From NCBI GenBank assembly GCA_003650255.1, contig QMOP01000001.1, positions 1 to 33,051 of the forward strand: 33,051 nucleotides of DNA. The letters run 5' to 3'. This DNA comes from Caldisericota bacterium (GTDB taxonomy: Bacteria; CG03; B21-G15). The position numbers and the translations under genes were made by a program. The notes beneath the pieces were generated by a model that was not told the DNA's origin, searched no databases, and saw only the letters and a list, made by a program, of their open reading frames with translations. This document shows positions 39-31,825 of this stretch, piece after piece; positions within the stretch are counted from its first letter, which is position 1; each line of letters begins with the position of its first letter.

Positions 39-2489
39 ATGAAACTAAAGAAGTTTGGATATTTCAGTAAAGATGGGACAGAATTTATTATTACAACCCC
101 GCTACCTCCAAAGCCATGGATTAATTATTTAACAAATGAAATTTATTGTGCGATAATTTCTCAGACAGCAGGAGGATATTCGTTTTACAAAGATTGTAGA
201 AGTGATAGAATCTTAAGATGGGCACCCGAGAATAAAAATTTTGACCGTCCAGGAAGATATATTTTTGTTCATGATACAGATACAAAAGAGATATGGTCGT
301 TAAGTTATATTCCTCTAAGACAGAAATATAAAAGGTATCTCTGTAGACATGGGCTTGGATATACAGAAATTGAACAAGAGAGAGGAAGTATTTTAAGCAA
401 AATAGAGTTTTTTGTGCCAGTGAATGAGCCTTGCGAAGTGTGGATAGTAAGTTTAAAAAATAAAGGAAAAAAGACAAAAAGGCTGAAATTATTTCCGTAT
501 GTTGAGTTTTTAATTGGCGATTATCATATGGAGTTAAGATACAGAAATATAATGGTACTCTATAACAGATCTTGGTTTGACAGAGAAAAAGGGGCTATTT
601 TTGCTAAGAAAACTGCTTACTGGGGAGATATGAACATTCAGCCGTTTCCATATGTTGTGTTTTTTTCAAGCAGTTTAAAGGTTAAAAAAGCCTGTACAAG
701 AAAGGAAGCATTTCTTGGCCCTTACAATACAGAGGAGATGCCCGAGTCTGTATTTAAAGGAGAATTGAGAGAGTTTAATTTTTGTTCTGGTGAGGATGCA
801 GTTGGAGCATTTCAGCATGATGTCAAAATTGATCCGGGAAAAGTAGTAAAATTTGCTATTGTTCTTGGAGAAGCAAAGTCAGATACTGCCAGGAGGTTGA
901 TAAAAAAATATAGAAACATTTCAAAAGCGATGGAGGAGCTAGAAAGGACAAAAAAGTGGTGGAGAAAATTAATACTTGATAACATAGAAATTGAGACGCC
1001 AGATAAAGATATAAATATTTTCTTTAATATATGGTGTAAATATCAGTTATACATTTGTAATTACTGGTCAAGATCTCCTTCTTACTACCACGAAGGTTCT
1101 GGTGGAAGGGGATATAGGGATTCATGTCAGGATGCAGAGTCAATAGTTTCACTCAATCCAGAACTTACCAGAAAGAGAATTTTCTCTCTTGCAAAACTTA
1201 TAAGAGAAGATGGTTCTACTGCACCTGGCTGGTCTGAGACCAGAGGACCAGCAACATATAGGCCTAATAAGGATCATCCTGTTTGGCTTGTTTACACAGT
1301 TAGCTCTTACATAAAAGAGACAGGAGATGTTGGGATATTGAATAAGAAACTTCCGTACCTTAAAGATAAATGGAAAGATGGTTGGGAGATAGATCCTTTG
1401 TGGAGTAAAGGTTCAATATTTCTGGGAAAGGGGACATTATACGAGCATCTGTGGAAAAACCTCGAATACACTTATAATGATTTTGGCGAGTATAAACTTC
1501 CAAGAATTGGACATGCTGACTGGAATGATGGAATTGATGCTGCAGGAATAAAACACAGAGGTGGTTCTGTAATGCTTGCTTTCCAGCTCATAAGGTCAAT
1601 GAAGATTCTTGCTGAACTTGCAAATTTAATAGGCAGGAAAAAAGATGCAGAGGAGCTGATGCGTAGAGTTGAGATGGTGAAGAATATCCTGGAGAATAAA
1701 TACTGGGATGGAGTGTGGTATGTAAGAGGTGTAACAGATGATGGTTATGTTTATGGAAGTAAAAGGAATAGGGAAGGTAAGATATTTTTGAACTCCCAGT
1801 CATGGGCTATTCTTTCAGGAGTTGCTCAAGGCGAAAGATTAAAAAAACTTCTTTTTTCTGTTGATAAATATCTTGAAACAAAACATGGTTATGCATTGTT
1901 TTATCCTGCTTACAGCAAATGGGATAAAAGACTTGGAAGAATGAGCATGTTTTCAGAAGGAACAAAGGAGAATGCTGCTATTTTCTGTCATGCAGCAATG
2001 TTTATGATTGCTGCAAACTGTATTGCTGGAAGGGGAGAGAAAGCATATATAAATTTAAGAAAAATTATGCCGAATACACAGGAGGATTACAATCTTTATA
2101 AAGCAGAGCCGTATGTTTTTGCTGAATATCTTGTGGGTAGAGAACATCCATATCTTTTTGGAGAGGGAGAATTTACATGGATTACAGGAACCGCAGGCTG
2201 GGGATTTATGGTTTTAAATCAGTATATCCTTGGAATTAAGCCAGAGATTAATGGATTAAGAGTTTCTCCCTGTATTCCATCTCACTGGAAAAAGGTTTAT
2301 ATCAAAAGGCCATTTCGTGCTGACATTTATGAAATAATAATATATAATGAACATGGAGTAGAAACAGGAGTGGAGAAAATCATAGTTGATGGCAAAGAAA
2401 TAAGAGGGAATTTAATTCCTTATTTTGGCGATAAAAAGAGGCATACTGTTGAAGTAATAATGGGAAAAAGAAAGGGAGGACAGAGATGA
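39..2489 (+). CDS. GH94 disaccharide phosphorylase (cellobiose/chitobiose/laminaribiose phosphorylase family)
   Basis: 816-aa ORF with an AAGGAGG RBS at 27-33. The N-terminus FGYFSKDGTEFIITTPLPPKPWINYL resembles the characteristic GH94 start. It has the catalytic-Asp motif HADWNDG, and its length is typical of cellobiose/chitobiose phosphorylases. Substrate is not assignable by eye. Confidence 0.85.
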   Translation: MKLKKFGYFSKDGTEFIITTPLPPKPWINYLTNEIYCAIISQTAGGYSFYKDCRSDRILRWAPENKNFDRPGRYIFVHDTDTKEIWSLSYIPLRQKYKRYLCRHGLGYTEIEQERGSILSKIEFFVPVNEPCEVWIVSLKNKGKKTKRLKLFPYVEFLIGDYHMELRYRNIMVLYNRSWFDREKGAIFAKKTAYWGDMNIQPFPYVVFFSSSLKVKKACTRKEAFLGPYNTEEMPESVFKGELREFNFCSGEDAVGAFQHDVKIDPGKVVKFAIVLGEAKSDTARRLIKKYRNISKAMEELERTKKWWRKLILDNIEIETPDKDINIFFNIWCKYQLYICNYWSRSPSYYHEGSGGRGYRDSCQDAESIVSLNPELTRKRIFSLAKLIREDGSTAPGWSETRGPATYRPNKDHPVWLVYTVSSYIKETGDVGILNKKLPYLKDKWKDGWEIDPLWSKGSIFLGKGTLYEHLWKNLEYTYNDFGEYKLPRIGHADWNDGIDAAGIKHRGGSVMLAFQLIRSMKILAELANLIGRKKDAEELMRRVEMVKNILENKYWDGVWYVRGVTDDGYVYGSKRNREGKIFLNSQSWAILSGVAQGERLKKLLFSVDKYLETKHGYALFYPAYSKWDKRLGRMSMFSEGTKENAAIFCHAAMFMIAANCIAGRGEKAYINLRKIMPNTQEDYNLYKAEPYVFAEYLVGREHPYLFGEGEFTWITGTAGWGFMVLNQYILGIKPEINGLRVSPCIPSHWKKVYIKRPFRADIYEIIIYNEHGVETGVEKIIVDGKEIRGNLIPYFGDKKRHTVEVIMGKRKGGQR

Positions 2490-3748
2490 TTTATATTTTT
2501 TTAATTTCCTTGTTTTTTATTACTTCTTGCGCGAAAAAAACCGAAGAAAGGGAGATTGTAATTTGGCACTGGATGACAGATAGAGAGGATGCATTTTCAA
2601 GACTTGCTCAGGAGTTTATGGTGGAGAGGGGTATAAAGGTTAAGTTTGAATTATATGCTCCATCTGAGGTTTATTCTCAGAAGGTTAGAGCAGCTGCACA
2701 GACAAATACACTTCCTGACATATTTGGAATACTTGGTTCTCCGAGAGATTTTGCAAGTTTTATAAAAGCAGGGTTTGTTGAGGATCTGACTATGTATATG
2801 GAAGAGAACAATGGTAAGTGGAAAAACTCGTTTTATCCTCAAGCAATAGAGACTGTAAGCTTTAAAGATGGAAATATGTATGGAGTAAAGCCTGGTATAT
2901 ATGGAATTCCGATAGATATGATGAATATTCAAATGATATGTAATACCGAGATTCTGAAAAAGGCAGGAATAGAAAAAATTCCTGAGACATGGGAAGAATA
3001 TGTAGATGCTGGAAGGAAATTAAAAAAGAAGGGAATAAATGTTTTTGTAAGTGGTTGGGGAGAAGTCTGGCTTCTTGAGGCAATGGCAACAAGTTTTGCA
3101 TTCAATATCATGGGTCCTGAAAAAGTTTTTAATACATTTAAAGGTGAAGTTCCATATACTGACCCTGACTGGATAAAAGTTTTTTCACTGTTTGACACAA
3201 TGAGGAAGGAGGGGTTGTTTATAAAAGACAGTATAACAATGGTAAATAAAACAGCAGAACAGATGTTTGCGAATGGGAGATCTGCATTTACTTTTAATGG
3301 TTCATGGTGTATAAATGTTTATAAAGGAATGAATCCAAATCTTAAATATTCTCCCTGTCTTTTGCCCAAGGTAAATAGAGGAAATCCTGTTTATATCTGG
3401 GGTGGTTCTGGTTCTTGGTTTGTTGTGAATTCAAAGTCAAAATATAAAAAAGAGGCAATAGAATTTCTTAAGTGGTTGACCTCCTCACAGCAGCAAAAAT
3501 TCTTAACAGAAGAGACGATGAATTTACCTTCAAATAAAGATGCTGCTGAAAAGTTAAAAGGACTACTTAAGGAGTTTGCTCTTGGAATGAAATATGTAAC
3601 ACATCCAAATTTTTGGCCGGTTCATGAAACACCTGAAGTTATTGAAAAATTTGATAAAGGGATTCAACTTATTCTTATAGGTAAAAAAACTCCTTTTCAG
3701 GTAGCAAAGGAACTGGATAAATATAAAAAGGAACAACTGAAAGAATGA
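2486..3748 (+). CDS. ABC sugar transporter substrate-binding lipoprotein (family 1 SBP, CUT1 type)
   Basis: ATGA overlap with the upstream stop. Signal peptide with lipobox FFITSC. Length of 420 aa and W/F-rich SBP pattern (IVIWHW, GSWFVVN). Sits directly upstream of two permease genes. Confidence 0.85.
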   Translation: MIYIFLISLFFITSCAKKTEEREIVIWHWMTDREDAFSRLAQEFMVERGIKVKFELYAPSEVYSQKVRAAAQTNTLPDIFGILGSPRDFASFIKAGFVEDLTMYMEENNGKWKNSFYPQAIETVSFKDGNMYGVKPGIYGIPIDMMNIQMICNTEILKKAGIEKIPETWEEYVDAGRKLKKKGINVFVSGWGEVWLLEAMATSFAFNIMGPEKVFNTFKGEVPYTDPDWIKVFSLFDTMRKEGLFIKDSITMVNKTAEQMFANGRSAFTFNGSWCINVYKGMNPNLKYSPCLLPKVNRGNPVYIWGGSGSWFVVNSKSKYKKEAIEFLKWLTSSQQQKFLTEETMNLPSNKDAAEKLKGLLKEFALGMKYVTHPNFWPVHETPEVIEKFDKGIQLILIGKKTPFQVAKELDKYKKEQLKE

Positions 3749-4638
3749 GCGAGGAAAAGGTTTCAAAGTTAAAGGATTACCTTACCTCTTATCTCTTCAT
3801 TATTCCTGCAGTTCTTCTTTTTTCTGTTTTTAGTATCTACCCTATTTTTAAAATTCTCCAACTGAGTTTACTCAAATGGGATGGAATATCTCTTTATCCT
3901 AAGTTTGTTGGTTTAAAAAACTTTATTGAGGTTATAAAGGATAAAATATGGTGGAAGTCATTTTTGAATGCTGGAATAATCACTCTTCTTGCTCTTACTG
4001 TCCAGAATGCTCTTGCTCTTGTTCTTGCTATAATTGTTGATAAAGATATAAGAGCAGGTGAGATTTACAGAGTTATTTTTTATATTCCTCCAGTTCTTTC
4101 TGGAATAGTTGTTGGATTGATTTGGAACTGGATATACAATTATGATTATGGTTTTTTGAATCACTTTCTTGAAGTTATAGGTTTGGGAGGGTTAAAGAGA
4201 GCCTGGTTGAGCGATCCAAAGCTTGCTTTGTTTTCTGTTGCTGTTGTTCATATGTGGAAAGGGTTTGGTTGGGGTTTTATTATATTCCTTGCAGGACTTC
4301 AAACAATACCAAGGAATCTTTACGAGGCTGCTCAGATTGATGGTGCAACTCCCTGGAAGACATTTTTACATGTTGTTGTTCCTATGATGAGACCTGTTTT
4401 TTTTCTCGTCTCAATTTTGACAATTTTAGGAACAATGCAGATATACGATATAATAGTTGCAACAACAGGGGGTGGTCCAGGGTATGCAACAGAAGTGCCG
4501 ATAACCAGAATTCTTTCATCAATGTTAGGTTCTTCAAGATTTGGCTATGCGTGTGCTGAGGGTTTAATTTTTGGAGTTGTTCTTCTTGCTGTTTCCCTGA
4601 TACAGTTAAGGATATCGGCTATGATGAGAAATGAGTAA
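3745..4638 (+). CDS. ABC sugar transporter permease (MalF/UgpA-like)
   Basis: Multi-TM 297-aa protein with the EAA loop LYEAAQIDGATPWKTFLHVVVPMMRP. ATGA overlap with the SBP gene. Confidence 0.9.
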   Translation: MSEEKVSKLKDYLTSYLFIIPAVLLFSVFSIYPIFKILQLSLLKWDGISLYPKFVGLKNFIEVIKDKIWWKSFLNAGIITLLALTVQNALALVLAIIVDKDIRAGEIYRVIFYIPPVLSGIVVGLIWNWIYNYDYGFLNHFLEVIGLGGLKRAWLSDPKLALFSVAVVHMWKGFGWGFIIFLAGLQTIPRNLYEAAQIDGATPWKTFLHVVVPMMRPVFFLVSILTILGTMQIYDIIVATTGGGPGYATEVPITRILSSMLGSSRFGYACAEGLIFGVVLLAVSLIQLRISAMMRNE

Positions 4639-5482
4639 GATTTTACTAAAGGCAAGATTTGAAAAGGTTAAAGTTATTCTTGTATCACATTTAATATGTA
4701 TTCTTGTTACCATTGCTTGCATTTTTCCACTTGTATGGATGGTTTCATCGAGTTTAAAAACTCAGGAGACAGTTTTTAAGGATTTCTCTTTAATACCCAA
4801 ATCTCCTCACTTTAAAAATTATCTTATTGCAATAAAAGAAGCAAATTTCGGTATTTATTTTTTAAACAGTGTTTTTTATACTGCAACAGTTGTTCTTGCT
4901 ATAATTTTTCTTTCTTCCATGGCAGCGTATGCATTTTCCAGATTAAGGTTTCCACTGAGAAGTGTATTTTATATTATGCTTATATCAACAATGATGATCC
5001 CTATTCCAGGAATATTTATTGCTCTTTATGTTCTTTTAAATAAGCTCCACCTTATAAATACGAGAATTGGATATATACTCTGCCAGATTAATGCTGGACT
5101 GCCTTTGAGTATATTTCTTTTTAAAACATTTATGGACAAAATTCCGAAAGAGCTTGAGGAGGCAGCAAAAGTTGATGGATGTAATAAATTTCAGATTTAC
5201 TGGAAGATTGTTTTTCCCCTCAGCAGACCCACTCTTGGAGTAATTGCCATTTTTAATACCCTAGCTGTATGGAATGAGTATCTTTTGGCTATGCTTGTAT
5301 TCTCAGATAAGTCATTGATGCCATTACAGAGGGGTCTTATGGTTTTTTATGGTTCACATCTTACTCAATATCCACTTCTTATGGCAGGCCTTACAATTAC
5401 AACAATTCCTGTTCTTATTGTTTACTTCTTTATGCACAGATACATTGTTTCTGGAATAATTGCAGGAGCATTAAAAGGTTAA
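4631..5482 (+). CDS. ABC sugar transporter permease (MalG/UgpE-like)
   Basis: Multi-TM 283-aa protein with the EAA loop LEEAAKVDGCNKFQIYWKIVFPLSRP. 8-nt overlap with the upstream permease. Confidence 0.9.
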   Translation: MSKILLKARFEKVKVILVSHLICILVTIACIFPLVWMVSSSLKTQETVFKDFSLIPKSPHFKNYLIAIKEANFGIYFLNSVFYTATVVLAIIFLSSMAAYAFSRLRFPLRSVFYIMLISTMMIPIPGIFIALYVLLNKLHLINTRIGYILCQINAGLPLSIFLFKTFMDKIPKELEEAAKVDGCNKFQIYWKIVFPLSRPTLGVIAIFNTLAVWNEYLLAMLVFSDKSLMPLQRGLMVFYGSHLTQYPLLMAGLTITTIPVLIVYFFMHRYIVSGIIAGALKG

Positions 5483-5493
5483 AGGAGGATCAA

Positions 5494-7392
5494 ATGTTTA
5501 CAATTTTAATTATTGTGGGTATTTTTTTAAATTTAAGAGGTTTTGATCTGCTTGAATGGGGAGATGAGATTATTGATTATTCAAAATATGGAAAGTTTGT
5601 TGGAACAAATACAAGGAATTACAGATATGTTATTACTGACAGAAAAGGACTTGCAAAAGCTGCTGGAGAGGGTATATTTCCAAACAATTCTGTTCTTTCC
5701 GACCCGGAATATCTTCAGATGAAAAGAAGTGGCGAACTTGATGGTTCACACTGGAAGTTTGTTAATGACAGAAATTATAAAAGAGCATTTTTTAAGTGGG
5801 CTACTGCTCCTGAACCAATAGGGGTTAGACTTTTTTATATAGGTGATATTCTTCAGAGGGCAGCAACTTCAGACAGAAAGATTAATTATAGGTTGCTTTT
5901 GCAGGCAATTAAAGCTTATTATGCAATAGTTATTCACTTTCCAAAGACAGTTGCCTTTACATACTGGCATACTCCGTGGTACCCAGGAGTTGTTGCAATT
6001 GACAGGATATATTATTTAACGATGAAATACCCAGAGTTAGGTGTGCGTCTAAAGGATGCCTATATAAGAATAGAAAATTGTTTTAATGATACAACAAGAG
6101 ATGATGTATACATTGTTAATCCAGGAAAACTTGTTAAAGAAGAAAGATCTGAGAGAATGAATAAAAGAAATTTAGAAAGTATAGGAGTTTTGAGAAGAAT
6201 AGGGGGTGATATAACACAGCTTATTCAATATGAAAGTGGAGACTGGCAGCTCATTTTTCACGATCAGCCAATTTTAATAAAGGCAGTTGCGTACTCTCCT
6301 GCTCCTGTTGGGAAGTCTCCTGATACTGGAACATGGAATACCTATCATGACTGGTTTTTCTTAGATACAGATAGGAATGGGAAACTTGATGTTTACGAAG
6401 TTTGGGTTGACAGAAACAAAAATAACAGAAGAGATAAGGATGAAAAAATAACTTCTGATTTTGAACTGATGAAGGAAATGGGAGTGAATGCTATTCGACT
6501 TTATCATCATGGATATAGTAAGGAACTCTTGAGAGATTTATATGAGAATTATGGTATAGGAGTTTTGATGGGTGATTTTCTCGGAATGTATGCTATTGGC
6601 TCAGGAGCAGGCTGGTATGAGGGTACAGATTATACGAACGAGATTCATAAGAAAAATATGCTGGAGAGTGTAAGGGAGATGGTTGAAAAGTATAAGGATG
6701 AACCGTATGTTATAATGTGGATTCTTGGAAATGAGAACAATTATGGAGTTGTGGGTGATGAGACAACACCAGGACTTGGATGTAGGGCAAAGGAACAACC
6801 CGAGGCGTATTATAAGTTTGTAAATGAGGTTGCAAAATTTATAAAGTCAATTGACCCACATAAAAGACCTGTTGCTATATGTAATGGAGACCTTTTGTAT
6901 CTTGATTATATTGCTAAATACTGTAAGGATATTGATGTAATAGGTGTTAATGCTTATAGAGGACCATATGGTTTTGGTTACAGTTTTTGGAAGAATATTA
7001 AAAGATTAACAGATAAACCTGTTCTTATAACAGAGTATGGCTGTCCTGCTTATGGTAGGGGTTTTTCAGATGAGGAAGCAGAGGAGAAACAGGCAGAATA
7101 TTTAAGAGAAGCATGGCTTGATATATACTATAATTCAGCAGGTTATGGTGTTGGAAATGCTATTGGTGGAGTGCAGTTTGAGTGGGTTGATGAATGGTGG
7201 AAAGGTGGACCTCCACCAAGATTTGATCCAGCAAAGCATGACACAATACCAAATTTCTCCGGTCCTTTTCCTGATGGATGGTTTTATGAAGAATGGCTGG
7301 GTGTTACTTCTCAGGGTGATGGAAGTCATTCACCATTTATGAGACAATTAAGAAGATCATTTTTCATGTATAAGGAATTATGGAGAGATTAG
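5494..7392 (+). CDS. Membrane-anchored or secreted clan GH-A glycoside hydrolase/transglycosylase with GH72-like motifs and an unknown ~330-aa N-terminal region
   Basis: N-terminal hydrophobic segment. C-terminal TIM-barrel motifs are ILIKAVAYSPAPVG, GVNAIRLYHH, WILGNENNYG (acid/base candidate), LITEYGCPAY (nucleophile candidate) and FEWVDEWWKGG. Paralogous to the 14292 gene. Confidence 0.55.
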   Translation: MFTILIIVGIFLNLRGFDLLEWGDEIIDYSKYGKFVGTNTRNYRYVITDRKGLAKAAGEGIFPNNSVLSDPEYLQMKRSGELDGSHWKFVNDRNYKRAFFKWATAPEPIGVRLFYIGDILQRAATSDRKINYRLLLQAIKAYYAIVIHFPKTVAFTYWHTPWYPGVVAIDRIYYLTMKYPELGVRLKDAYIRIENCFNDTTRDDVYIVNPGKLVKEERSERMNKRNLESIGVLRRIGGDITQLIQYESGDWQLIFHDQPILIKAVAYSPAPVGKSPDTGTWNTYHDWFFLDTDRNGKLDVYEVWVDRNKNNRRDKDEKITSDFELMKEMGVNAIRLYHHGYSKELLRDLYENYGIGVLMGDFLGMYAIGSGAGWYEGTDYTNEIHKKNMLESVREMVEKYKDEPYVIMWILGNENNYGVVGDETTPGLGCRAKEQPEAYYKFVNEVAKFIKSIDPHKRPVAICNGDLLYLDYIAKYCKDIDVIGVNAYRGPYGFGYSFWKNIKRLTDKPVLITEYGCPAYGRGFSDEEAEEKQAEYLREAWLDIYYNSAGYGVGNAIGGVQFEWVDEWWKGGPPPRFDPAKHDTIPNFSGPFPDGWFYEEWLGVTSQGDGSHSPFMRQLRRSFFMYKELWRD

Positions 7393-8549
7393 ACTGGAAA
7401 GGTATAAATATTGGAGGTTGGTTAATGTGGGAAGGATATATAATGGGAGGAAGAAACATTCCTGAGAAAGAGTTTCTAAAGGAATTTTCAGAAGTTAATG
7501 GAAAAGAAGAAACACAGAAATTTTCATATTTGTTTAAGAGGAAGTTCATTAGAGAGGATGATTTTAAGAATATAAAAAATATAGGGTTTAATTCAATAAG
7601 AATACCCTTTCATTACAAAATTATTGAAAAGGAAGAATGGAGATGGATTGATACGGCAATTAAGTGGGCGAAAAAGAACGGGTTAGGAGTTATTCTTGAC
7701 ATGCATGCACTACCGGAAAGTCAAAATGGTAATTGGCATTCAGATGGAAAGGAAAAGCCACTTTTTTGGAAAAAGAAGAGAAATATGGAAAGATTTATAG
7801 TTTTATGGAAAAAAATCGCAAAAAGATATAAAGGCGAGAAACAGATAGTTGCCTATGATGTGATAAATGAACCTGCAGTTGAAAATGATAGACTACTTGC
7901 AGATGTATATAACAAGGTTATTGATGAGATAAGAAATATTGGGGATGGACATTACATAATTGTTGAAGGAAATTACTGGGCAACAGATTTTAAATTTTTA
8001 AAGTTTCTGAAAAAGAATAAAAGGATAATCCTTGGAGTTCATTTTTATCAGCCAATGAATTTTGTCTTTAATATTAAAAGAGACCTTAAATTTCCAGGGA
8101 AAATTGATGGAGAGATATGGAATAGGAAAAAGTTAAGAACCATTTTGTCAAATTATCTCAGATTAAGGGATTTACATGGTTATCCAATCCATATTGGAGA
8201 GTTTGGAATAAATGTATGGGGGAACAGGTTTTCAAGAGGAGAGGGTGAGTGGCTTGATGAAATAATTGATTTCTCTGCAAAAGAAGGAATTGGGTGGAGT
8301 TATTGGTGTTATAAGAAAGTGGCAACTCCTGTTTTTCCATCTGCAATTTATGAATACAATGAAAATCCATTTTGGCTTGAAAGGGGAGGTGATGCACCTG
8401 AAGGATATGAAAGATACATTTTTTACTGGAAAAGATTTAAAAGAAGAATAGTTAAGTCCTGGAGTACAAGTGAATTTTCAAAACACAATATACTTTTAGG
8501 GTTTTTTAGAAGCAAATTAAGACAAAAAAATGGCAAAAATAGACATTGA
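7380..8549 (+). CDS. GH5 family glycoside hydrolase (cellulase/beta-glucanase-like), no obvious signal peptide
   Basis: Motifs GINIGGWL, FNSIRIPF, VILDMHALPESQNG, VAYDVINEP (acid/base Glu) and IHIGEFG (nucleophile Glu). 13-nt overlap with the upstream gene. Confidence 0.8.
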   Translation: MERLDWKGINIGGWLMWEGYIMGGRNIPEKEFLKEFSEVNGKEETQKFSYLFKRKFIREDDFKNIKNIGFNSIRIPFHYKIIEKEEWRWIDTAIKWAKKNGLGVILDMHALPESQNGNWHSDGKEKPLFWKKKRNMERFIVLWKKIAKRYKGEKQIVAYDVINEPAVENDRLLADVYNKVIDEIRNIGDGHYIIVEGNYWATDFKFLKFLKKNKRIILGVHFYQPMNFVFNIKRDLKFPGKIDGEIWNRKKLRTILSNYLRLRDLHGYPIHIGEFGINVWGNRFSRGEGEWLDEIIDFSAKEGIGWSYWCYKKVATPVFPSAIYEYNENPFWLERGGDAPEGYERYIFYWKRFKRRIVKSWSTSEFSKHNILLGFFRSKLRQKNGKNRH

Positions 8550-13403: not shown

Positions 13404-14285
13404 ATGAGGTATTTGGTTTATTGTGTTTTGATTTTTTTGGTTTCCTCCTGTAGTAAAAAGAATAAACTTCTTGAGAATACTCTTGAGATAATAATTTCTC
13501 CATCATCAGTTTCCATTTCTACCGGAACAAGTATAGAACTTACAGCAACAGGAAAAAGTGCAAAAAGTGATAATGTTGATATTGATCCTGTGTGGTCTGT
13601 TACAAACAATCTTGGAACCTTTACACCTGATAAGGGAAAAAAGGTCATATTTACTGCTGGAAATTCTGCTGGAAGTGGTGTGATAAGAGCTACTGAAGAG
13701 GATGTTTATTCGGAAATACCGCTTACTGTTAAAGCCGGTACAGGTGGAGGAGGAACTGGAGGAGGTAGTGTTGTTTTTTATAGTGATTCTGGATTAAATT
13801 CTGATTTTGGAACTCCTGACATTTTTACTTGGGCAGAAAATAATGACATATCTGCTCAAGAGATAACAGATGGAAATGGTCCATCAGGGGATTCTTCCAG
13901 TTATCAGAGTTTTTCTTCGAATTCCTCTACTTGGTTTGGGGGTGGTATAGTTCTTAATAAAGTTAGCGGAAATGCTTCAGCTGTTGACTTATCTGCTTAT
14001 TCTTCAGGGAACTCACTTAAATTTTATATAAAACTTACTAGACAGCTTTCTGGTTCTGAACAGATTAAGGTGGAGATAGAGTATGGTTCGGGTTCAAAGT
14101 CAACATTGTATCTTTCCTCTTCCTATGGATTTGACAGCACAAGCACAAACTGGCAGGAAATAACGATACCCCTTACAGATTTTACAGGGGTGGATTTCAG
14201 TTCAATTAAGCTTCCATTTGAGATTACAGCAGAAAATATAACTTCTTCTTTAACTTTTTACTGGGATTATGTAAGATGGGAATAA
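13404..14285 (+). CDS. Lipoprotein: Big_2 (bacterial Ig-like) domain + Gly-rich linker + CBM-like beta-sandwich
   Basis: Lipobox LVSSCSK. Big_2-like pattern IIISPSSVSISTGTSIELTATG...WSVTNNLGTF...GVIRAT. Linker GTGGGGTGGG. The C-terminal domain has WFGGGIV, SLKFYIK, WQEITIPLTDF and FYWDYVRWE. Confidence 0.6.
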   Translation: MRYLVYCVLIFLVSSCSKKNKLLENTLEIIISPSSVSISTGTSIELTATGKSAKSDNVDIDPVWSVTNNLGTFTPDKGKKVIFTAGNSAGSGVIRATEEDVYSEIPLTVKAGTGGGGTGGGSVVFYSDSGLNSDFGTPDIFTWAENNDISAQEITDGNGPSGDSSSYQSFSSNSSTWFGGGIVLNKVSGNASAVDLSAYSSGNSLKFYIKLTRQLSGSEQIKVEIEYGSGSKSTLYLSSSYGFDSTSTNWQEITIPLTDFTGVDFSSIKLPFEITAENITSSLTFYWDYVRWE

Positions 14286-14291
14286 TAAAGA

Positions 14292-15617
14292 GTGTTTGCA
14301 ATTTTGTTTTTATTACTTCTCTCCTCTGAAAGTTTCTTAGTAAAAAATAGAGGAGTGTATCTTGGTGGAAAAACTTTTATTGTAAGAGGGATATGTTATT
14401 CACCAACTCCTGTTGGTGAGGATGTTTCTCTGGGTTATGAATGGTGGAATGACGATTATTATCTTGATGATTTACCCCTTTTAAAATCTCTTGGTTGTAA
14501 TGTGATAAGAACATACGACATGAAGGCAACCTCTTCAGATGAAGAGGTGCGGTTGGAGAAGGTTCTTGATGATTTTTATAACTATGGAATATATATAATT
14601 ATGGGATATTGGGTAAATCCGGGACAGGATTTTTCCTCTCCAACTATAAGGGATAGTTTGAAAAATGATTTCATAAATATGGTAGAAAAATGGAAAAATC
14701 ATCCAGCAGTTTTTGGATGGTGTTTTGGAAATGAAGTCTGGCCTGGCGGAAGTGGAACGGATGAGGAGAAATGGAAAAGTTGGTATTCACTTGTTGAAGA
14801 GGTTTCATCTTTAACTAAATCCATTGACCCTGACCATCCGGTGATGACAGTAAACAGTGATATATGGACGATTGGAAGAACAGAGTTGGGTTCTGATGAT
14901 TCATCCCTTCCTTCACTTGATATATGGGGAGTTAATCTATATCTTGGAGATTCATTCCAGAGTAGATTTTCGTCGTTTACTGTTCTTTCTTCAAAGCCAT
15001 TTTTAATAACTGAGTTTGGCTGTGATGCTTGGAATGGGAAAGTTGGTTCTGAAGATGAGGATTTGCAGGCCAATTATATTCAAGCACAGTGGAAGGAAAT
15101 AGAGGAGAATCTTTTTACAGAGTCTGGAGCAGTTATAGGAGGCTGTCTGTTTGAGTGGGTGGATGAGTGGTGGAAAAGTAATTCAGGAAGCCCGTCATCT
15201 CATGATACATCTAGCGATTGGACTAATGTTTATTATTCTGATCCAAGCATGAATGAGGAGTGGTGGGGAATAAGGAAGATACTCTTACCTCCATACAATT
15301 GTAGTTCTAGAGAAGCATATTTTACTCTTCAAAATTTATGGAGTAAATATGTGTTAAGTTCTGAAAAAGTTTATGTTTTTCCCAACCCTTTTTACCCGGG
15401 AAGAGGACAGAAGTTGAGTTTTGGAAATCTACCAGTTAATTCCGAAAAGATAAGAATCTTTGCTATCAGTGGAGAGTTCATTGATGAGATTTCGGTTATT
15501 AACCAGCAGGCAAACTGGTATGGAGAAAATTATTATGGAAAGCCTGCCGCATCAGGAGTTTACTTTTTTGTTGTTTATCCAGCTGGACAGAAAGGTAAAT
15601 TCGTTCTTATAAAATAA
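14292..15617 (+). CDS. Secreted clan GH-A glycoside hydrolase/transglycosylase with GH72-like motifs and a T9SS-type C-terminal sorting (FlgD-Ig-like) domain
   Basis: GTG start with a signal peptide. Motifs GKTFIVRGICYSPTPVG, LKSLGCNVIRTYD, GIYIIMGY, WCFGNEVW, LITEFGCDAW and FEWVDEWWK. The C-terminal ~80 aa (VYVFPNPFYPG...IRIFAISGEFI...ASGVYFFVV...GKFVLIK) look like TIGR04183-type CTDs. Confidence 0.6.
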   Translation: MFAILFLLLLSSESFLVKNRGVYLGGKTFIVRGICYSPTPVGEDVSLGYEWWNDDYYLDDLPLLKSLGCNVIRTYDMKATSSDEEVRLEKVLDDFYNYGIYIIMGYWVNPGQDFSSPTIRDSLKNDFINMVEKWKNHPAVFGWCFGNEVWPGGSGTDEEKWKSWYSLVEEVSSLTKSIDPDHPVMTVNSDIWTIGRTELGSDDSSLPSLDIWGVNLYLGDSFQSRFSSFTVLSSKPFLITEFGCDAWNGKVGSEDEDLQANYIQAQWKEIEENLFTESGAVIGGCLFEWVDEWWKSNSGSPSSHDTSSDWTNVYYSDPSMNEEWWGIRKILLPPYNCSSREAYFTLQNLWSKYVLSSEKVYVFPNPFYPGRGQKLSFGNLPVNSEKIRIFAISGEFIDEISVINQQANWYGENYYGKPAASGVYFFVVYPAGQKGKFVLIK

Positions 15618-18413: not shown

Positions 18414-18448
18414 TTTACTGATAGGAATTTAACGAGGAGGTGATGAAG

Positions 18449-19111
18449 ATGAAGGAGAAAATTCTGACTGCTGTATGTATGGTTTTTCTTGCTGGATGTT
18501 TAGCTAAAAAAGAGGTTGTGAAGGAGGAGTTTGTTCCAGAAGCTCAACAGATGAGTTCAGCCCAGCAGGAGTCAGGATATAAAGGGTATGCTGTTCAGTT
18601 TCCTTTTTATGTTTACAAAGATAGAACATATCGTGGTAACCATTACATTCCAAGCGGTTGGATGGGAGATTATGGAGATATAAAGTTGAATGAGAATTGC
18701 CGGGAGAATCCTTATTCAGGAAAAACATGTATTAAAATTGTCTATACTGCAAAGAAATCCCAAGGAGCAGGATGGGCAGGAATTTACTGGCAGAATCCAG
18801 CAAATAACTGGGGGACTGTTAAAGGAGGATATGATTTGACAGGATCAAAAAAACTTGTTTTTTATGCGAGAGGAGAAAAAGGGGGAGAGGTTGCTGAATT
18901 TAAAATGGGAGGAATACAGGGTGAATACAGTGATACAGATATGGCAACTACAGGTCCGATTGTATTGAGTAAGAAATGGAGAAAGTATGAGATAGACCTT
19001 ACAGGACTTGACCTTTCTTATATTTCAGGTGGTTTCTGCTGGGTGACCTCTTCACAGGATAATCCTGAAGGATGCACGATATATCTTGATGAGATAGTAT
19101 ACATTAAATGA
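18449..19111 (+). CDS. Lipoprotein with CBM-like beta-sandwich domain
   Basis: The ORF opens at GTG 18440, and in-frame ATGs lie at 18443 and 18449. The ATG at 18449 has the best spacing to the RBS. Lipobox FLAGC. Motifs are GWMGDYGDI, GWAGIYWQNPANNWG, LVFYARGEKGGE, WRKYEIDLTGL and CTIYLDEIVY. It is a close paralog of the N-terminal domain of the next gene. Confidence 0.55.
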   Translation: MKEKILTAVCMVFLAGCLAKKEVVKEEFVPEAQQMSSAQQESGYKGYAVQFPFYVYKDRTYRGNHYIPSGWMGDYGDIKLNENCRENPYSGKTCIKIVYTAKKSQGAGWAGIYWQNPANNWGTVKGGYDLTGSKKLVFYARGEKGGEVAEFKMGGIQGEYSDTDMATTGPIVLSKKWRKYEIDLTGLDLSYISGGFCWVTSSQDNPEGCTIYLDEIVYIK

Positions 19112-20397
19112 TATTCATCTTTCTGATATTGTATTTAAAGGCAATTGATTATTTTTACGTATACTCATCATGTAAAGATGAAATAAACAGGTTCTCTCCC
19201 TCAGGCTTTATGGGAGATGTAAATGATTTCTACCTTACACATGATTATAAAATTCGTTCGCCTTTAAAATGTTCAAGAGGCAGTTTGAAAATTAAATATG
19301 AACCAAAGGGTGAAAAAGGATGGGCGGGTATTTATTTCCTTCATCCGCCAAACAATTGGGGAAATATAAGAGAAGGGTATAATCTTACTGGAGCAACAGA
19401 AATAATCTTTTATGCAAAGGGTAAGAAGGGCGGTGAAAAGATTTCTCTTATAAAAATAGGAGGTTTAACAGGAAGGTATCCTGACAGTGATACCATGCAG
19501 ATTGGGCCACTTCGCCTTAGTAAAAAATGGAAGAGATTTACAATTGATATTTCAAAGATGAATTTAAGATATATCGCAGGGGGGTTCTGTGTAATTCTTA
19601 AGAAGGAGGATAATCCAAAGGGATGTACGATTTATCTTGATGGAATTGCATATAGAGGTGGGAGAATATATGCTTTAAAGACCCTTGGTGATGATGTCCC
19701 TCCAAAACTTAGTATCAAACTTTCATCAAATGAGTTAAATCTTGGAAAAAATCTTGATATCTTCTTGGAAGCAAAGGATAATAGAGTTGTTAAAGAGTGG
19801 AGTTTAAAGATTTTAAATCAGGAAAGGAATGAAATTAAAATTTGGCAGGGATCTTCAGATCCCCCAAAAAAGATTATCTGGGATGGAAAGGATGATATAT
19901 ATAAAAAGTATGTTCCATCTGGAGAATATACATTTATTTTTAAAGCAAAAGATGAAGCAGGAAATGTTTCAGAGGTTCAGTCAAAGGTGGTGGTAAAAAA
20001 GAAAGAGAAAAAGGAGTATAAAAAGATAAAGATAGTGGAAAGCGAAAAGGGTTTAAGGGTGAGATTGAAATCAGACATTCTTTTCGGAATAGGAAAATAT
20101 AAGTTAAAGAAGGAAGTTTATCCTATTCTTGATGAACTTGTTGAACTTTTAAAGGAGTATCCAGAGAATAAAATTTTAATAGAAGGACATACTGATAGTG
20201 TGGGTTCAGAAGGTTATAATTTAAAACTTTCAATTAAAAGGGCTAAAGAGGTCAGGAATTATCTTGTAAAAAAGGGAATAAGTAGCGAAAGAATAAAGGT
20301 AGTAGGTTATGGTGAGAAAAAACCAATAGCATCAAATAAGACAAGACATGGAAGAGCACTTAATAGAAGAGTTGAGGTGATAATATTAAAGAAGTAG
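19108..20397 (+). CDS. Envelope protein: CBM-like domain + Ig-like (FlgD-Ig-type) domain + OmpA C-terminal peptidoglycan-binding domain
   Basis: ATGA overlap with the upstream gene. The N-terminal domain has GFMGDVNDF, GWAGIYFLHPPNNWG, IIFYAKGKKGGE, WKRFTIDISKM and CTIYLDGIAY. The middle has IIWDGKDDIYKKYVPSGEYTFIFKAKDEAGN. The OmpA_C motifs are EGHTDSVGSEGYNLKLSIKRAKEV and NRRVEVII. Confidence 0.8.
   Translation: MIFIFLILYLKAIDYFYVYSSCKDEINRFSPSGFMGDVNDFYLTHDYKIRSPLKCSRGSLKIKYEPKGEKGWAGIYFLHPPNNWGNIREGYNLTGATEIIFYAKGKKGGEKISLIKIGGLTGRYPDSDTMQIGPLRLSKKWKRFTIDISKMNLRYIAGGFCVILKKEDNPKGCTIYLDGIAYRGGRIYALKTLGDDVPPKLSIKLSSNELNLGKNLDIFLEAKDNRVVKEWSLKILNQERNEIKIWQGSSDPPKKIIWDGKDDIYKKYVPSGEYTFIFKAKDEAGNVSEVQSKVVVKKKEKKEYKKIKIVESEKGLRVRLKSDILFGIGKYKLKKEVYPILDELVELLKEYPENKILIEGHTDSVGSEGYNLKLSIKRAKEVRNYLVKKGISSERIKVVGYGEKKPIASNKTRHGRALNRRVEVIILKK
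20378..20386 (+). promoter_or_regulatory. Possible extended -10 promoter (TGaTAATAT) inside the 3' end of the OmpA-like gene, positioned to start transcription just before the riboswitch
   Basis: TG at 20378-20379 and TAATAT at 20381-20386. The predicted start near 20393 lies ~6 nt 5' of the aptamer. No good -35 was seen. In an AT-rich genome such matches are frequent. Confidence 0.3.
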
Positions 20398-28847: not shown

Positions 28848-29396
28848 ATGAGGAGAGGAATTACAGTAATTGCAGGAAGATTTAGGGGAAGGAAACTTAA
28901 TTCTTTAAAAGATCCGATTCTAAGACCTCTTCTTGCAAGATCAAGGAAATCGCTGTTTGATATTCTTGGTAGTTTTGTTGAAGGAAAAAGTTTTTTAGAC
29001 CTTTATGCAGGAGTTGGAACAGTTGGAATAGAGGCGCTTTCTCGTGGAGCAAGTGAGGTTCATTTTGTTGAGTGTAATAAGAAGGTTTTGAGGGTTTTAA
29101 AAAAGAATATTGAAAAGTTGGAGGAGAAGAAAAGGGTGAAAGTTTTTGAGATGAGAGTTGAGGATTTTATAAGATTTTTTAAAAAAAAATATGATATAGT
29201 ATTTCTTGGACCACCATATAAAGATGGAATAAATACTGGAATTGTGGAAAAACTTGAAGAATTTTTAAATAAAAAATCTATTGTAATTTTACAGCATCAT
29301 GTAGGACAGAAACTCCCTTTAAAGATTGGAGAGAGATTGTGTTTGAAAAGAAAAAAAATTTATGGAAAAACTGCTTTGTCTTTTTACTCTTTCTGA
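28848..29396 (+). CDS. rsmD: 16S rRNA (guanine966-N2)-methyltransferase RsmD
   Basis: 182 aa. Motifs VIAGRFRGRKL, RPLLARSRKSLFDIL, the SAM motif LDLYAGVGTVGIEALSRGA, and FLGPPY (DPPY-type). Confidence 0.8.
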   Translation: MRRGITVIAGRFRGRKLNSLKDPILRPLLARSRKSLFDILGSFVEGKSFLDLYAGVGTVGIEALSRGASEVHFVECNKKVLRVLKKNIEKLEEKKRVKVFEMRVEDFIRFFKKKYDIVFLGPPYKDGINTGIVEKLEEFLNKKSIVILQHHVGQKLPLKIGERLCLKRKKIYGKTALSFYSF

Positions 29397-31825
29397 ATTC
29401 AATACTATTTTCTAAACAGTATACCGGAGTTTTAAAAAGAGATACAGTATTTAGTGGAAGGGTTGTTATAAAAGGAGACCTTGTTGTTGATAAAGGGGTT
29501 GAATTAAAAATTCTTCCTGGAACAATATGTTATTTCATAAATGAAGGAAAGGATAGTTTTACAATTAAAAAAAGGGTTAAGGATACGGAAGTTGATTTTG
29601 GCTTTGGAAAAAGAACATCATTAATTGTGAAGGGAAAACTTATTGCAGAAGGAGAAAGTGAAAATACAATTGAGTTCAGAAAAATTCCTGAAAAGGGAGG
29701 AAGATATTACTGGGGAGGAATTATTTTTGTTGAAAATTCAGAAGGAACATTAAGACATGTGGAGATAGAGGATGCTCTTGTAGGCATTGCAGGACTTGAT
29801 TCTTCAAAGATAAATTTTGAACTTTCAAAGATAGAACATTGCGGAATAGGAATGATGTTGCTTGATAATTCAACAGTAAATTTAAATGGTGTTAATGTTA
29901 CAAATTCAAGCACATCTGGAATGGAATTATATGGATATTCAAAGGCAGAGGTTGAAAGCTCTATTTTTGAAGAAAATCTCGGTAAAGCAATTCTTCTTAA
30001 TGACTTTTCTTATGTTCTTTTAAGGAATTCAAGAATTATTAGAAATAAGGTTGGTATTGCTGTTTATGATGTTGCAAAGGTTAATATGAAGGATAATGTT
30101 TTTAAGGAGAATGAAATAACATCAATTGGAATTACAGAAGAAATACCAGAAGGGGATTACACCTGGAGTGGAGTTTTAAATCTTGACCATGATATAGTAA
30201 TTCCTGAGGGTAAAACACTCATAATTGAGCCGGGAACAGTTATTTATGTTTCAACAAGAAGTGTAAGGGATTCAAGGGTTCTTAAACTTTCTGGTGGAGA
30301 AAGGGTGGATGTAAGTTTCAGGGGACTTGTTGATATAGTTATAAAGGGAGATATATGGGCTGTTGGAGAAGAGAAAAAACCAATTGTTTTTACAACAAAA
30401 AGCAAGGAAAAGGGATACTGGGGTGGAATAATTTTTGTAGGAAGAAACTCAAAGAGTAAACTTAAAAATGTTGTTATAAAAGGAGCAAAGGTAGCAATAT
30501 ATACTTGGGATGCATCAGCACCTTTGATAGAAAATACAAAAATTGTTGAAAACTATATGGGAGTTGTTGCCTGTGAAAATTCAGTTCCAATTTTAAAATT
30601 CTGTAAAATCTTTAAAAATGTATATGGAATTGCTTCTTATGATTACGCTTCTCCTTCTTTAAGAATGAGTTTTCTCGGAAGTTCATCAAAGGTGGGATTT
30701 GGAACAAGGGGAAGTTCATCTCCTTATTTATTTAAAAATGAGATAGAGAATAATGAGGTTGGAGTTGGGGTTTTTGAACATTCATCTCCTAAAATTGAAA
30801 AAAATAACATAAAGAAGAATAAATATGGAATAATTGCCCTTGATAAGTCAAAACCGAGTATTTATGAGAATATTTTTGTTAAGAATGAAAGTGGAATAAA
30901 TTTAAATGACTATACAGATGCAGTTCTTCTTAAAAATAAGTTTATATTGAATGAACTTGCTTTAAAATATGAGGTTACTTCAAATATAAAGATGGTGGAT
31001 AATTTCTTTGAAAAGAATTTTAAAGATAAAGAGATCCATGGTGGAGGAGCTTTTACTGTATCGGGTATTCTTAAGGAGAATGAACTCTGGAAAGGAGAAG
31101 TAGAACTTAAAGGAGATGTTCTTGTCCCTTCTGGAGTTACACTTTACATTGAGAATGCAAAACTATACTTTCCAGATATAACTGATTTTGACCTTGATAT
31201 AGCAAGGATAATTTCAGGTAAAAAGGAAATTATAACAAATCCGGGCTTGAGTGAAATCATAGTTGAGGGAAAGATTGTTATAAAAAATTCAAGTTTTCTT
31301 TCTAAGAAGAAATATATAAAGGAAAACCTTATTAGTGGAGGAATCTTTATTTTTGGAGAGGGAGAACTTAGTGAGGTTGAGATTTACAATTCAAAAGTTG
31401 GAATAGGTGTTCTTGGAAAGGGAGTTTCAAATTTAAACAGTATTACAATTTTTGGGGCAGATACAGGACTCCTTATTGGTGAAAATTCAAAGGTAAATGC
31501 TGAAGGAGTGAAGATTATTGACTGTAAGAAGGGAATATTTCTTTCTGATAATGCAACTTTAAAGTTTAAAAGAGGGATTCTTTCAAAAAATGGTGAAGGA
31601 ATTTTATGTTTAGATTCTTCATATCTTGATTTAAGAAACACAATCATTTCAAAAAATAAAAAAGGGATCTTGGTAAAAGATGAAGCAATTGCTATAATTG
31701 ATAAGAATGTATTTGCAAAAAATTATATGGCAGTTGAGATATTTTCTATCAGGATGCCAGAATTTAAGGAAAATAAGTTTGAAGAGAATGTTAAAACTTC
31801 TAATTTTCCTCATCTTTTTAGGTAG
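29339..31825 (+). CDS. Secreted right-handed parallel beta-helix (PbH1) repeat protein built from three ~250-300-aa modules
   Basis: GTG start with a 58-nt overlap with rsmD. Signal peptide CFVFLLFLNSILFS. Many ~22-aa PbH1-like repeats (NxxxxNxxGIxxxxxS). Three module heads each have a KGD-VV/PxGxTLxI segment followed by YWGGIIF or GGIFIF. Confidence 0.7.
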   Translation: MFEKKKNLWKNCFVFLLFLNSILFSKQYTGVLKRDTVFSGRVVIKGDLVVDKGVELKILPGTICYFINEGKDSFTIKKRVKDTEVDFGFGKRTSLIVKGKLIAEGESENTIEFRKIPEKGGRYYWGGIIFVENSEGTLRHVEIEDALVGIAGLDSSKINFELSKIEHCGIGMMLLDNSTVNLNGVNVTNSSTSGMELYGYSKAEVESSIFEENLGKAILLNDFSYVLLRNSRIIRNKVGIAVYDVAKVNMKDNVFKENEITSIGITEEIPEGDYTWSGVLNLDHDIVIPEGKTLIIEPGTVIYVSTRSVRDSRVLKLSGGERVDVSFRGLVDIVIKGDIWAVGEEKKPIVFTTKSKEKGYWGGIIFVGRNSKSKLKNVVIKGAKVAIYTWDASAPLIENTKIVENYMGVVACENSVPILKFCKIFKNVYGIASYDYASPSLRMSFLGSSSKVGFGTRGSSSPYLFKNEIENNEVGVGVFEHSSPKIEKNNIKKNKYGIIALDKSKPSIYENIFVKNESGINLNDYTDAVLLKNKFILNELALKYEVTSNIKMVDNFFEKNFKDKEIHGGGAFTVSGILKENELWKGEVELKGDVLVPSGVTLYIENAKLYFPDITDFDLDIARIISGKKEIITNPGLSEIIVEGKIVIKNSSFLSKKKYIKENLISGGIFIFGEGELSEVEIYNSKVGIGVLGKGVSNLNSITIFGADTGLLIGENSKVNAEGVKIIDCKKGIFLSDNATLKFKRGILSKNGEGILCLDSSYLDLRNTIISKNKKGILVKDEAIAIIDKNVFAKNYMAVEIFSIRMPEFKENKFEENVKTSNFPHLFR

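Follow-up and report, generated by a model that had tools for sequence, protein, structure and literature searches.

Two genes in a 33,051-nucleotide stretch of DNA from a Caldisericota bacterium (contig QMOP01000001.1 of assembly GCA_003650255.1; the window, in what follows, is this whole stretch) encode predicted glycosidases that we assign to a distinct, biochemically uncharacterised family of clan GH-A glycoside hydrolases (GH), outside GH72, GH2, GH157 and GH158. The two open reading frames (ORFs), P0001 at 5494-7392 (the long form) and P0002 at 14292-15617 (the short form), lie among genes that form one long co-directional run, mostly overlapping, and had been described in an earlier note as bacterial enzymes carrying the motif set of the fungal GH72 (Gas/Gel) beta-1,3-glucanosyltransferases. 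The explanation that we favor, and consider reasonably probable, is that both are exported enzymes of an operon that digests a beta-1,4-containing glucan, imports the fragments and breaks them down by phosphorolysis. Homology, conserved catalytic residues, separation of the family from its relatives, synteny and domain fusions were observed directly, and are laid out below together with the competing explanations.

Both proteins are predicted to be intact retaining glycosidases of clan GH-A, and paralogous to each other. Each has a confidently modeled barrel with an Asn-Glu pair on strand 4 and a Glu on strand 7 (AlphaFold pLDDT 89.6 for P0002, and pLDDT 90.1 with pTM 0.91 for P0001, from homologue alignments), and both models were matched by Foldseek to many GH-A structures with a probability of 1.00. 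The shared TIM barrel proposed in the earlier note was borne out, with 29% identity (E 8e-37) aligned across the whole barrel, and every quoted motif was located: TFIVRGICYSPTPVG (residues 28-42), LKSLGCNVIRTYD (64-76), GIY (99-101), CFGNEVW (144-150), LITEFGCDAW (238-247) and FEWVDEWWK (287-295) in the short form, and ILIKAVAYSPAPVG (260-273), ILGNENN (410-416), LITEYGCPAY (511-520) and FEWVDEWWK (562-570) in the long form. Catalysis would proceed by double displacement, via Glu148 and Glu241 in the short form and Glu414 and Glu514 in the long form. These residues align with the catalytic residues of GH158, which have been established by mutagenesis or covalent intermediates (PMC7157763, PMC13195107), N136 and E137 of BuGH158 being the conserved asparagine and the acid/base (PMC7157763). 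The genome itself, a 1.41-Mb metagenome-assembled genome (MAG) that is 70% complete, holds only these two copies of the family.

Homologues of the long form align at 50-65% identity over 96-100% of its length. Its N-terminal extension comes to approximately 255 residues, and not the 330 first supposed, because strand 1 of the barrel is the first motif of the set, at residue 260. The initial 19 residues are probably an export signal or membrane anchor, judging from a hydrophobic 13-residue window within the first 60 residues of 38 of 44 long-form homologues; a signal-like hydrophobic N-terminal segment is found in most homologues of both forms. The domain that follows gives weak TPR_6/TPR_14 matches in homologues, and was detected in 45 of 79 related loci, a set chosen from the loci with relatives in GTDB genomes and searched by tblastn with the window proteins. 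Strand 1 of the barrel is followed in the long form by an Asp/Asn-rich insert of approximately 45 residues, in which D291, D299, D306 and N310 are invariant across 44 homologues, and which would lie on the catalytic face. Residues 291-303 match an EF-hand loop pattern modelled on PROSITE PS00018. A strict EF-hand reading was downgraded, as the pattern is kept in only 2 of the 44 homologues; the loops possibly bind Ca2+.

The resemblance to GH72 is homology and not chance, since the Pfam GH72 model (PF03198) matches the short form at E 4e-9 (36.6 bits against a cut-off of 25.9, profile positions 24-256 of 314, corresponding to strands 1-7), but it holds at the level of the clan only. The same protein also scores above the cut-off for GH2_C (30 bits), and the long form has no GH72 match even at E<=10, with 61.8 bits, above the cut-off, for GH2_C. 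Among 36 family members, GH2_C matched 32 (best E 2e-20) and GH72 matched 30 (best E 1.6e-23), so that the resemblance to GH72 is no stronger than that to GH2. As GH157 and GH158 yielded no Pfam match of their own (their fragments barely match the GH72 model), the comparison was made against solved structures. Phmmer searches of the Protein Data Bank (PDB) with P0002 gave GH158 at 51.9 and 35.4 bits, GH72 at 29.2, LaGH157 at 26.9 and GH2 at about 20; with P0001 they gave GH158 at 48 bits, followed by GH2 beta-glucuronidases, with no GH72 among the 60 chains listed; and with the basal member P0176 they gave GH158 at 56, GH157 at 43.5, GH2 at 39 and GH72 at 25 bits. A profile built from the 36 members scored GH158 at 118 and 84 bits, human GH2 beta-glucuronidase at 83, GH157 at 77 (full length, residues 4-446 of 9FZ9) and GH72 at 69. 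When the family profile was aligned by hhalign to PDB fragments drawn from the search outputs, the scores were 156.5 for GH2, 138.8 for GH158, 137.9 over 295 columns for GH157 and 109.5 for GH72. Foldseek ranked LaGH157 (1e-21) first for the P0002 model, followed by GH158 (3e-19 to 2e-18) and then GH2, and GH2 and GH158 (about 1e-13) first for the P0001 model, for which GH157 fell outside the top 50; GH72 structures were absent from the top 50 for either model.

With the exception of the single-sequence phmmer search on the short form, GH72 thus ranked behind the three other families, all four being related to a comparable degree, and the proposed membership is not supported. The earlier note had named a clearly better match to another GH-A family as the result that would count against GH72; other families do match better, if only by a modest margin. 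Nor is the motif set specific to GH72, given that motifs 1, 2, 4 and 5 also stand in the alignments to GH2, GH157 and GH158, as GKPFxxxG before strand 1, G-x-N-x-(I/F)-R-T, GNE and TE(F/Y)G, respectively, and that the catalytic Glu pair on strands 4 and 7 is found throughout clan GH-A and does not discriminate. FEWVDEWWK, which had been listed as following the GH72 motifs, is part of a stretch (FEWVDEWWK...EEWWG) for which LaGH157 is the sole match in the entire PDB (FYYADGWWKGG...EEWFG, E 0.0014). The Cys after the nucleophile motif is the only feature specific to the family and GH72. Bacterial GH72-like proteins are also no novelty as such, prokaryotic PF03198 matches being already abundant in public data.

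Public annotation takes a different view, with NCBI and JGI naming the homologues "GH2 TIM barrel domain-containing" or "beta-glucuronidase". That they are ordinary GH2 exo-glycosidases of the beta-galactosidase or beta-glucuronidase type would agree with these names, with GH2_C above its cut-off for both copies and with the top hhalign score, and yet we consider it scarcely credible. GH2 enzymes are built from a sugar-binding jelly roll (PF02837), an Ig-like sandwich (PF00703) and then the barrel (PF02836). Only PF02836 was matched by Pfam here, PF02837 and PF00703 being absent; the NCBIfam beta-glucuronidase and beta-galactosidase equivalogs reached 12-46 bits against cut-offs of 544-2000; the strand 8 signature is not of the GH2 type; and GH2 fragments are separated from the family in the tree described below.

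Several lines of evidence set the family apart. Its best 150 representatives scored 346-928 bits against the family profile, while no solved family exceeded 118 bits, and at E<=1e-30 it comprises at least 1,686 representative clusters (50% identity). In a maximum-likelihood tree of the catalytic domains, all six GH2, GH72, GH157 and GH158 fragments lie on one side of a branch with an SH-aLRT of 100, and have terminal branches of 2-3.3 changes per site, compared with an in-family median of 0.32. Long forms make up one clade (SH-aLRT 100), sister to the Omnitrophota short forms of about 400 residues, and P0002 falls in a different subclade, where a sorting-type domain frequently forms the C-terminus. 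Because the catalytic residues are invariant and the family separates from its relatives, we take P0001 and P0002 to be intact enzymes of a distinct family, which appears to be roughly equidistant from all four known ones, with GH158 and GH157 nearest. No description of it was found in the literature on 9FZ9, on GH72 together with Omnitrophota, or on PF03198/Glyco_hydro_72 in bacteria (fungal papers only).

It is unlikely, in our judgment, that the two enzymes instead belong to GH158 or GH157, as highly divergent members or as a subfamily, and would be strict endo-beta-1,3-glucanases of a laminarin or curdlan operon. In favor of this, GH158 is the best sequence match of both copies and of the family profile, GH157 is the top structural match of the short form, with an alignment over the full barrel and a shared D(E/G)WWK...EEW(W/F)G signature, and both families are characterised endo-beta-1,3-glucanases (PMC7157763, PMC10229575, PMC13195107). 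Against it, identity amounts to only 15-22% for GH158 and about 17% for GH157, the scores of 27-118 bits compare with 350-930 within the family, the GH158 match is confined to strands 2-7, GH2 scores as well as GH157 and GH158 do, and the tree separates the family from both.

Carriers of the family are uncultured bacteria and archaea, mainly Omnitrophota, MAGs with Endomicrobia or Elusimicrobia labels, and Hadarchaeales; the closest public homologues carry Endomicrobia labels. GTDB species genomes contain at least 586 loci with relatives, most of them in Omnitrophota and the others in Elusimicrobia- or Endomicrobiia-labelled genomes or Hadarchaeales, and the complete genome of Velamenicoccus archaeovorus LiM is among the carriers. 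Within the small GTDB phylum to which the window's genome belongs, the family occurs in 3 of 26 genomes, a patchy distribution that suggests lateral transfer. One genome of the same phylum has four family members in tandem (G001:C48:404-7580), and 23 of the 26 have none. The barrel was also seen inside proteins of 1,500-3,500 residues (P0246, P0296, P0325, P0267, P0315 and P0253), in the company of multiple CBM30, CBM11, PKD, Ig-like, dockerin and beta-helix modules, and P0243 (1,263 residues) contains three stretches that match the family profile.

Table 1. Features of the window that bear on the two enzymes and their operon (GH, glycoside hydrolase; SBP, solute-binding protein; ABC, ATP-binding cassette; CBM, carbohydrate-binding module; T9SS, type IX secretion system).
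Feature	Position	Strand	Basis
GH94 phosphorylase, no signal peptide, cytoplasmic, first operon gene	39..2489	+	Pfam GH94 351 bits
CUT1-type ABC importer: lipoprotein SBP (2486-3748), permeases (3745-4638 and 4631-5482)	2486..5482	+	Profile matches, conserved order
Long form P0001, 632 aa: signal-like N-terminus, conserved N-terminal domain, clan GH-A TIM barrel	5494..7392	+	ATG start, AAGGAGG ribosome-binding site; intact
Hydrophobic N-terminus of long form, residues 1-19	5494..5550	+	Hydrophobic segment
N-terminal domain of long form, residues 20-255: helical TPR-like part, then beta-sandwich	5551..6258	+	AlphaFold secondary structure, many invariant columns
(beta/alpha)8 catalytic barrel of long form, residues 256-632	6259..7389	+	Pfam GH2_C 61.8 bits; best PDB match GH158; Foldseek GH2, GH158
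Two Asp/Asn-rich loops (DTDRNGKLDVYEV, DRNKNNRRDKDE), P0001 residues 291-317, long forms only	6364..6444	+	Conserved residues
Predicted acid/base Glu414 (GNE), long form	6733..6735	+	N413-E414 invariant; aligned with GNE of GH158, GH2, GH157
Predicted nucleophile Glu514 (TEYG), long form	7033..7035	+	E514 invariant; aligned with TEFG of GH158
GH5, no signal peptide, overlaps end of long-form gene	7380..8549	+	Pfam GH5 127 bits
Lipoprotein with CBM-like C-terminal domain, directly upstream of short form	13404..14285	+	SGBP_B_XBD and Exop_C just above cut-offs; CBM30 below (22.3/27)
Short form P0002, 441 aa: signal-like N-terminus, TIM barrel, flexible linker, C-terminal beta-sandwich	14292..15617	+	GTG start; intact
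Predicted acid/base Glu148 (GNE), short form	14733..14735	+	N147, E148 invariant in 36 family members; aligned with GH158 GNE
Predicted nucleophile Glu241 (TEFG), short form	15012..15014	+	E241 invariant; aligned with TEFG of GH158/GH157, SEYG of GH72
C-terminal beta-sandwich of short form, residues 360-441, look-alike of T9SS-type sorting domain	15369..15614	+	Sub-threshold profile matches
Small CBM-like beta-sandwich protein	18440..19111	+	tblastn matches in 68/79 related loci

The genes around the long form make up a conserved cassette. In the window, the genes for the GH94 phosphorylase, the SBP, the permeases, the long form and GH5 overlap one another, and SBP, permease 1, permease 2 and long form were collinear in all 34 of the related loci that hold all four. 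Orthologues of the GH94 phosphorylase (50-58% identity) lie directly upstream in eight loci (L027, L043, L051, L062, L070, L074, L086 and L090), seven of the Omnitrophota type, including that of V. archaeovorus and two in records labelled Planctomycetia, and one from Hadarchaeales; the linkage of GH94 to the cassette therefore crosses domains, from Bacteria to a Hadarchaeales archaeon. The first 7.4 kb of the window (GH94, SBP, two permeases and long form) is collinear with a known Omnitrophota cassette at approximately 50-60% protein identity. A third conserved component is the small CBM-like domain, homologues of the 18440-19111 protein occurring in Omnitrophota as two tandem copies flanked by the long form and a second family member, always so in the loci whose gene order was mapped (L043 to L090, about 8.7-9.9 kb). 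The same CBM-like domain was seen at the N-terminus of the OmpA-family protein at 19108-20397. In related loci, the counterpart of the lipoprotein at 13404-14285 matches CBM_11 and CBM30. GH5 is not part of the conserved system, because tblastn found it in none of the 79 related loci; it is probably a cytoplasmic oligosaccharide trimmer added to the operon in this lineage, and its PDB matches are mixed (CelC, exo-beta-1,3-glucanases and a putative xylosidase). Elsewhere in the window, two large right-handed beta-helix (NosD/Beta_helix) proteins lie side by side at its right end (29339-32984).

Parts of a cyclic di-GMP (c-di-GMP) system, namely a GGDEF protein and a riboswitch, with PilZ in related loci, surround the cassette, and could be taken to favor bacterial GH72 enzymes which, like fungal Gas/Gel, remodel a beta-1,3-glucan, possibly one made by the cell itself. 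The Pfam GH72 score of the short form and of most members, set beside the near absence of such matches from GH157 and GH158 fragments, would fit this, as would the Cys that TE(F/Y)GC has in common with the SEYGC of GH72. We give this explanation very little credence. GH72 came last of the four families in the profile, hhalign and basal-member comparisons and is missing from both structural lists, the long form has no match to it, and the match of the short form ends at strand 7. Cell-wall GH72 enzymes have a glycosylphosphatidylinositol (GPI) anchor and, in GH72+ members, a C-terminal Cys-box (CBM43/X8). Pfam found no such box in either protein: the long form ends with the barrel, and the C-terminal beta-sandwich of the short form, which the long form lacks, is reached through a linker whose pLDDT falls below 50. 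Constant association with a phosphorylase and an SBP-dependent importer speaks for a catabolic role. The idea of a self-made glucan was set aside on a weak negative: neither a GT48 glucan synthase nor BcsB was found in the 70%-complete genome, and the GT48 control gave no signal anywhere. A related proposal, in which the family would be the prokaryotic source or sister of fungal GH72, bridging it to GH157 and GH158, and some members would not be simple hydrolases but transglycosylases, remodeling under c-di-GMP control a glucan made or captured by the cell, strikes us as highly improbable; candidates for such a role would be the long form, in view of its added N-terminal domain and its Ca-loop insert, and the copies in Omnitrophota giant proteins.

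That the substrate is a beta-glucan, as the earlier note had it, remains plausible, but the choice of beta-1,3-glucan over cellulose conflicts with the type of the GH94 enzyme and with the CBM30 and CBM11 fusions. The GH94 protein matched the solved cellobiose phosphorylase of C. thermocellum at 488 bits and laminaribiose phosphorylase at only 122, which also tells against laminarin and hence against a GH158- or GH157-type operon. CBM30 was found in four of eight large multidomain members scanned (up to four copies, 168 bits), and CBM11 in two of the eight; such partners indicate beta-1,4 or mixed-linkage glucans as the target. CBM30 binds lichenan well, amorphous cellulose (PASC) weakly and xylan not at all (PMC4687162). 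A GH116 beta-glucosidase and a ROK kinase occur in related loci. The homology argument for beta-1,3-glucan holds at the level of the clan only. Within GH158 itself, GH158(Pro) requires a beta-1,3 linkage across subsites -2 and -1, but cuts mixed-linkage oligosaccharides at beta-1,4 bonds (PMC13195107). Homology and context would be reconciled most simply by a glucan of mixed linkage or one that otherwise contains beta-1,4 bonds. We infer that the enzymes are most likely retaining endo-beta-glucanases, and that their substrate is most likely a mixed-linkage beta-1,3-1,4 or amorphous beta-1,4 glucan and not a pure beta-1,3-glucan.

For the short form, the C-terminal domain akin to those of the type IX secretion system (T9SS) that the earlier note had suspected is credible, since its homologues reach PF18962, the domain recurs in the genome and an SprA-like ORF is present; the match nevertheless stays below every curated cut-off (TIGR04183 18.2/23 and CHU_C 18.8/27, with Por_Secre_tail and FlgD_ig also sub-threshold). 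Compared with the C-terminus of PorZ, it scored 32.5 bits. Open frames of 560-2,144 codons carry the sorting-type domain of P0002 at nine other places in the genome (contigs C164, C120, C56, C155, C101, C39, C191, C49 and C45 of G000; loci L003-L010), and a SprA_N-like ORF of 1,669 residues lies on a further contig (C82, L017). These observations suggest that, although not one of the Bacteroidota, this lineage exports proteins by a T9SS-like route.

In the mechanism that we propose, the short form would be either exposed at the cell surface or released from it via its T9SS-type C-terminal domain, and would make endo-cuts in a beta-glucan captured by the neighboring CBM-like lipoproteins. The long form, whose gene invariably comes straight after those of the permeases, would be exported and would trim the fragments in the periplasm to oligosaccharides, which the SBP-dependent ABC importer would take up, leaving the cytoplasmic GH94 phosphorylase, and here also GH5, to finish their breakdown. 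A number of points weigh against this scheme. Localisation, endo-action, substrate, the division of labor between the two forms, and hydrolysis as opposed to transglycosylation are all inferred from sequence and gene context, and the sorting of the short form is argued from domain matches that are sub-threshold. GH94 accompanies the cassette in only 8 of the 79 loci, and stands directly upstream of the SBP gene in 6 of the 28 with enough upstream sequence. Beta-1,3-glucan is the substrate of GH157, GH158 and GH72, the closest families with characterised members, and this would favor laminarin or curdlan over glucans that contain beta-1,4 bonds; the solved relatives of the SBP are ambiguous, being weakly matched (75-82 bits) binders of chito-, beta-1,2-gluco- and malto-oligosaccharides. 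The tree, with its long branches, leaves the four known families and the new one in a basal polytomy, and was not used to name a sister family. Finally, published readings of the Omnitrophota cassette favor the digestion of prey cell walls (10.1101/2023.11.21.568195).

This last alternative, in which the operon would serve to digest a cell-envelope glycan of prey or neighbors, e.g. a polymer containing GlcNAc, and not a free beta-glucan, has more than one observation behind it. The cassette adjoins giant genes and PilZ genes in Omnitrophota, including V. archaeovorus, which preys on an archaeon, and two preprints report that Omnitrophota giant genes have PilZ genes, binding-protein-dependent transporters and "GH2" hydrolases as neighbors, a set interpreted there as a means of digesting prey walls, the enzyme family and its substrate being examined in neither (10.1101/2023.11.21.568195; 10.64898/2026.06.07.730766). 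The best matches of the SBP are binders of chitin oligosaccharides (NagB1, 82 bits, and NgcE), and, for the GH94 enzyme, the score against chitobiose phosphorylase (399 bits) is similar to that against some cellobiose phosphorylases (380 bits). We nonetheless hold it to be rather improbable for the window, where no giant gene stands next to the cassette in the genome concerned, the best GH94 match is a cellobiose phosphorylase, the CBM30/CBM11 fusions suggest glucose polymers, as do the GH116 beta-glucosidase and the ROK kinase, and the nearest characterised families are all glucanases.

The cassette and the clan of the enzymes were already known; what is added is a family-level variant, and not the discovery of bacterial GH72. 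What this analysis newly contributes is that GH94 is linked to the cassette in three lineages, that family members are fused to CBM30 and CBM11, that the cassette is collinear with that of V. archaeovorus and that the signature at strand 8 is of the GH157 type. If the enzymes are active, the family would merit its own CAZy number, and would help to explain how beta-glucan is harvested without SusC/D in Omnitrophota, Endomicrobia-like bacteria and Hadarchaeales. The split in annotation, "GH2" on one side and Pfam "GH72" on the other, misleads reconstructions toward galactosidases or glucuronidases, or toward a fungal signal in metagenomes. Presence of the cassette in V. archaeovorus, which is co-cultured, offers a test bed for prey cell-wall digestion versus plain glucan scavenging.

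Among known systems, GH158 (BuGH158, 6PAL; GH158(Pro), 9ORO/9P25) shares with the two enzymes the clan GH-A barrel, the NE acid/base, the TE(F/W)G nucleophile and an occurrence in bacterial glucan-harvest loci, and where GH158(Pro) has its +1-subsite Trp236, the family has an aromatic residue 6-7 positions after the nucleophile. It lacks the WWK...EEWWG signature, however, and its Ig-like domain packs on the barrel, in contrast to the C-terminal domain of the short form, which appears to hang on a low-confidence linker. GH157 (LaGH157, 9FZ9/9G4N/9G5G; BcellWH2_01931) aligns over the whole barrel and is the sole solved family with D(E/G)WWK(G)...EEW(W/F)G after strand 8; it differs in scoring only 27-44 bits by single sequence and 77 by profile, and its characterised members come from SusC/D-type polysaccharide utilization loci of Bacteroidota rather than from operons with an ABC importer. 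GH72 (Gas2, 2W62; 8PE1/8PE2) has in common the clan, the order of motifs from strands 1 to 7, the Cys after the nucleophile and a Pfam cut-off reached by most members, whereas the family lacks a Cys-box/CBM43 and any eukaryotic setting of secretion or GPI anchoring, its own context being catabolic. GH2 (1BHG, 6XXW) is comparable in that GH2_C exceeds its cut-off, hhalign and Foldseek place it near GH158, and the barrel of the long form, like that of GH2, follows a beta-sandwich; the loop signatures of GH2 differ, and the CBM30 and CBM11 partners of the family are typical of polysaccharide enzymes. A further close system is the Omnitrophota giant-gene cassette (West-Roberts et al. 2023, 10.1101/2023.11.21.568195), whose enzymes were labelled simply GH2 in that publication, with which the first 7.4 kb of the window is collinear, and which V. 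archaeovorus LiM carries; to it the window adds GH5, the short form with its C-terminal domain, a pilin, a DUF5683 protein, CBM-like lipoproteins and a c-di-GMP module.

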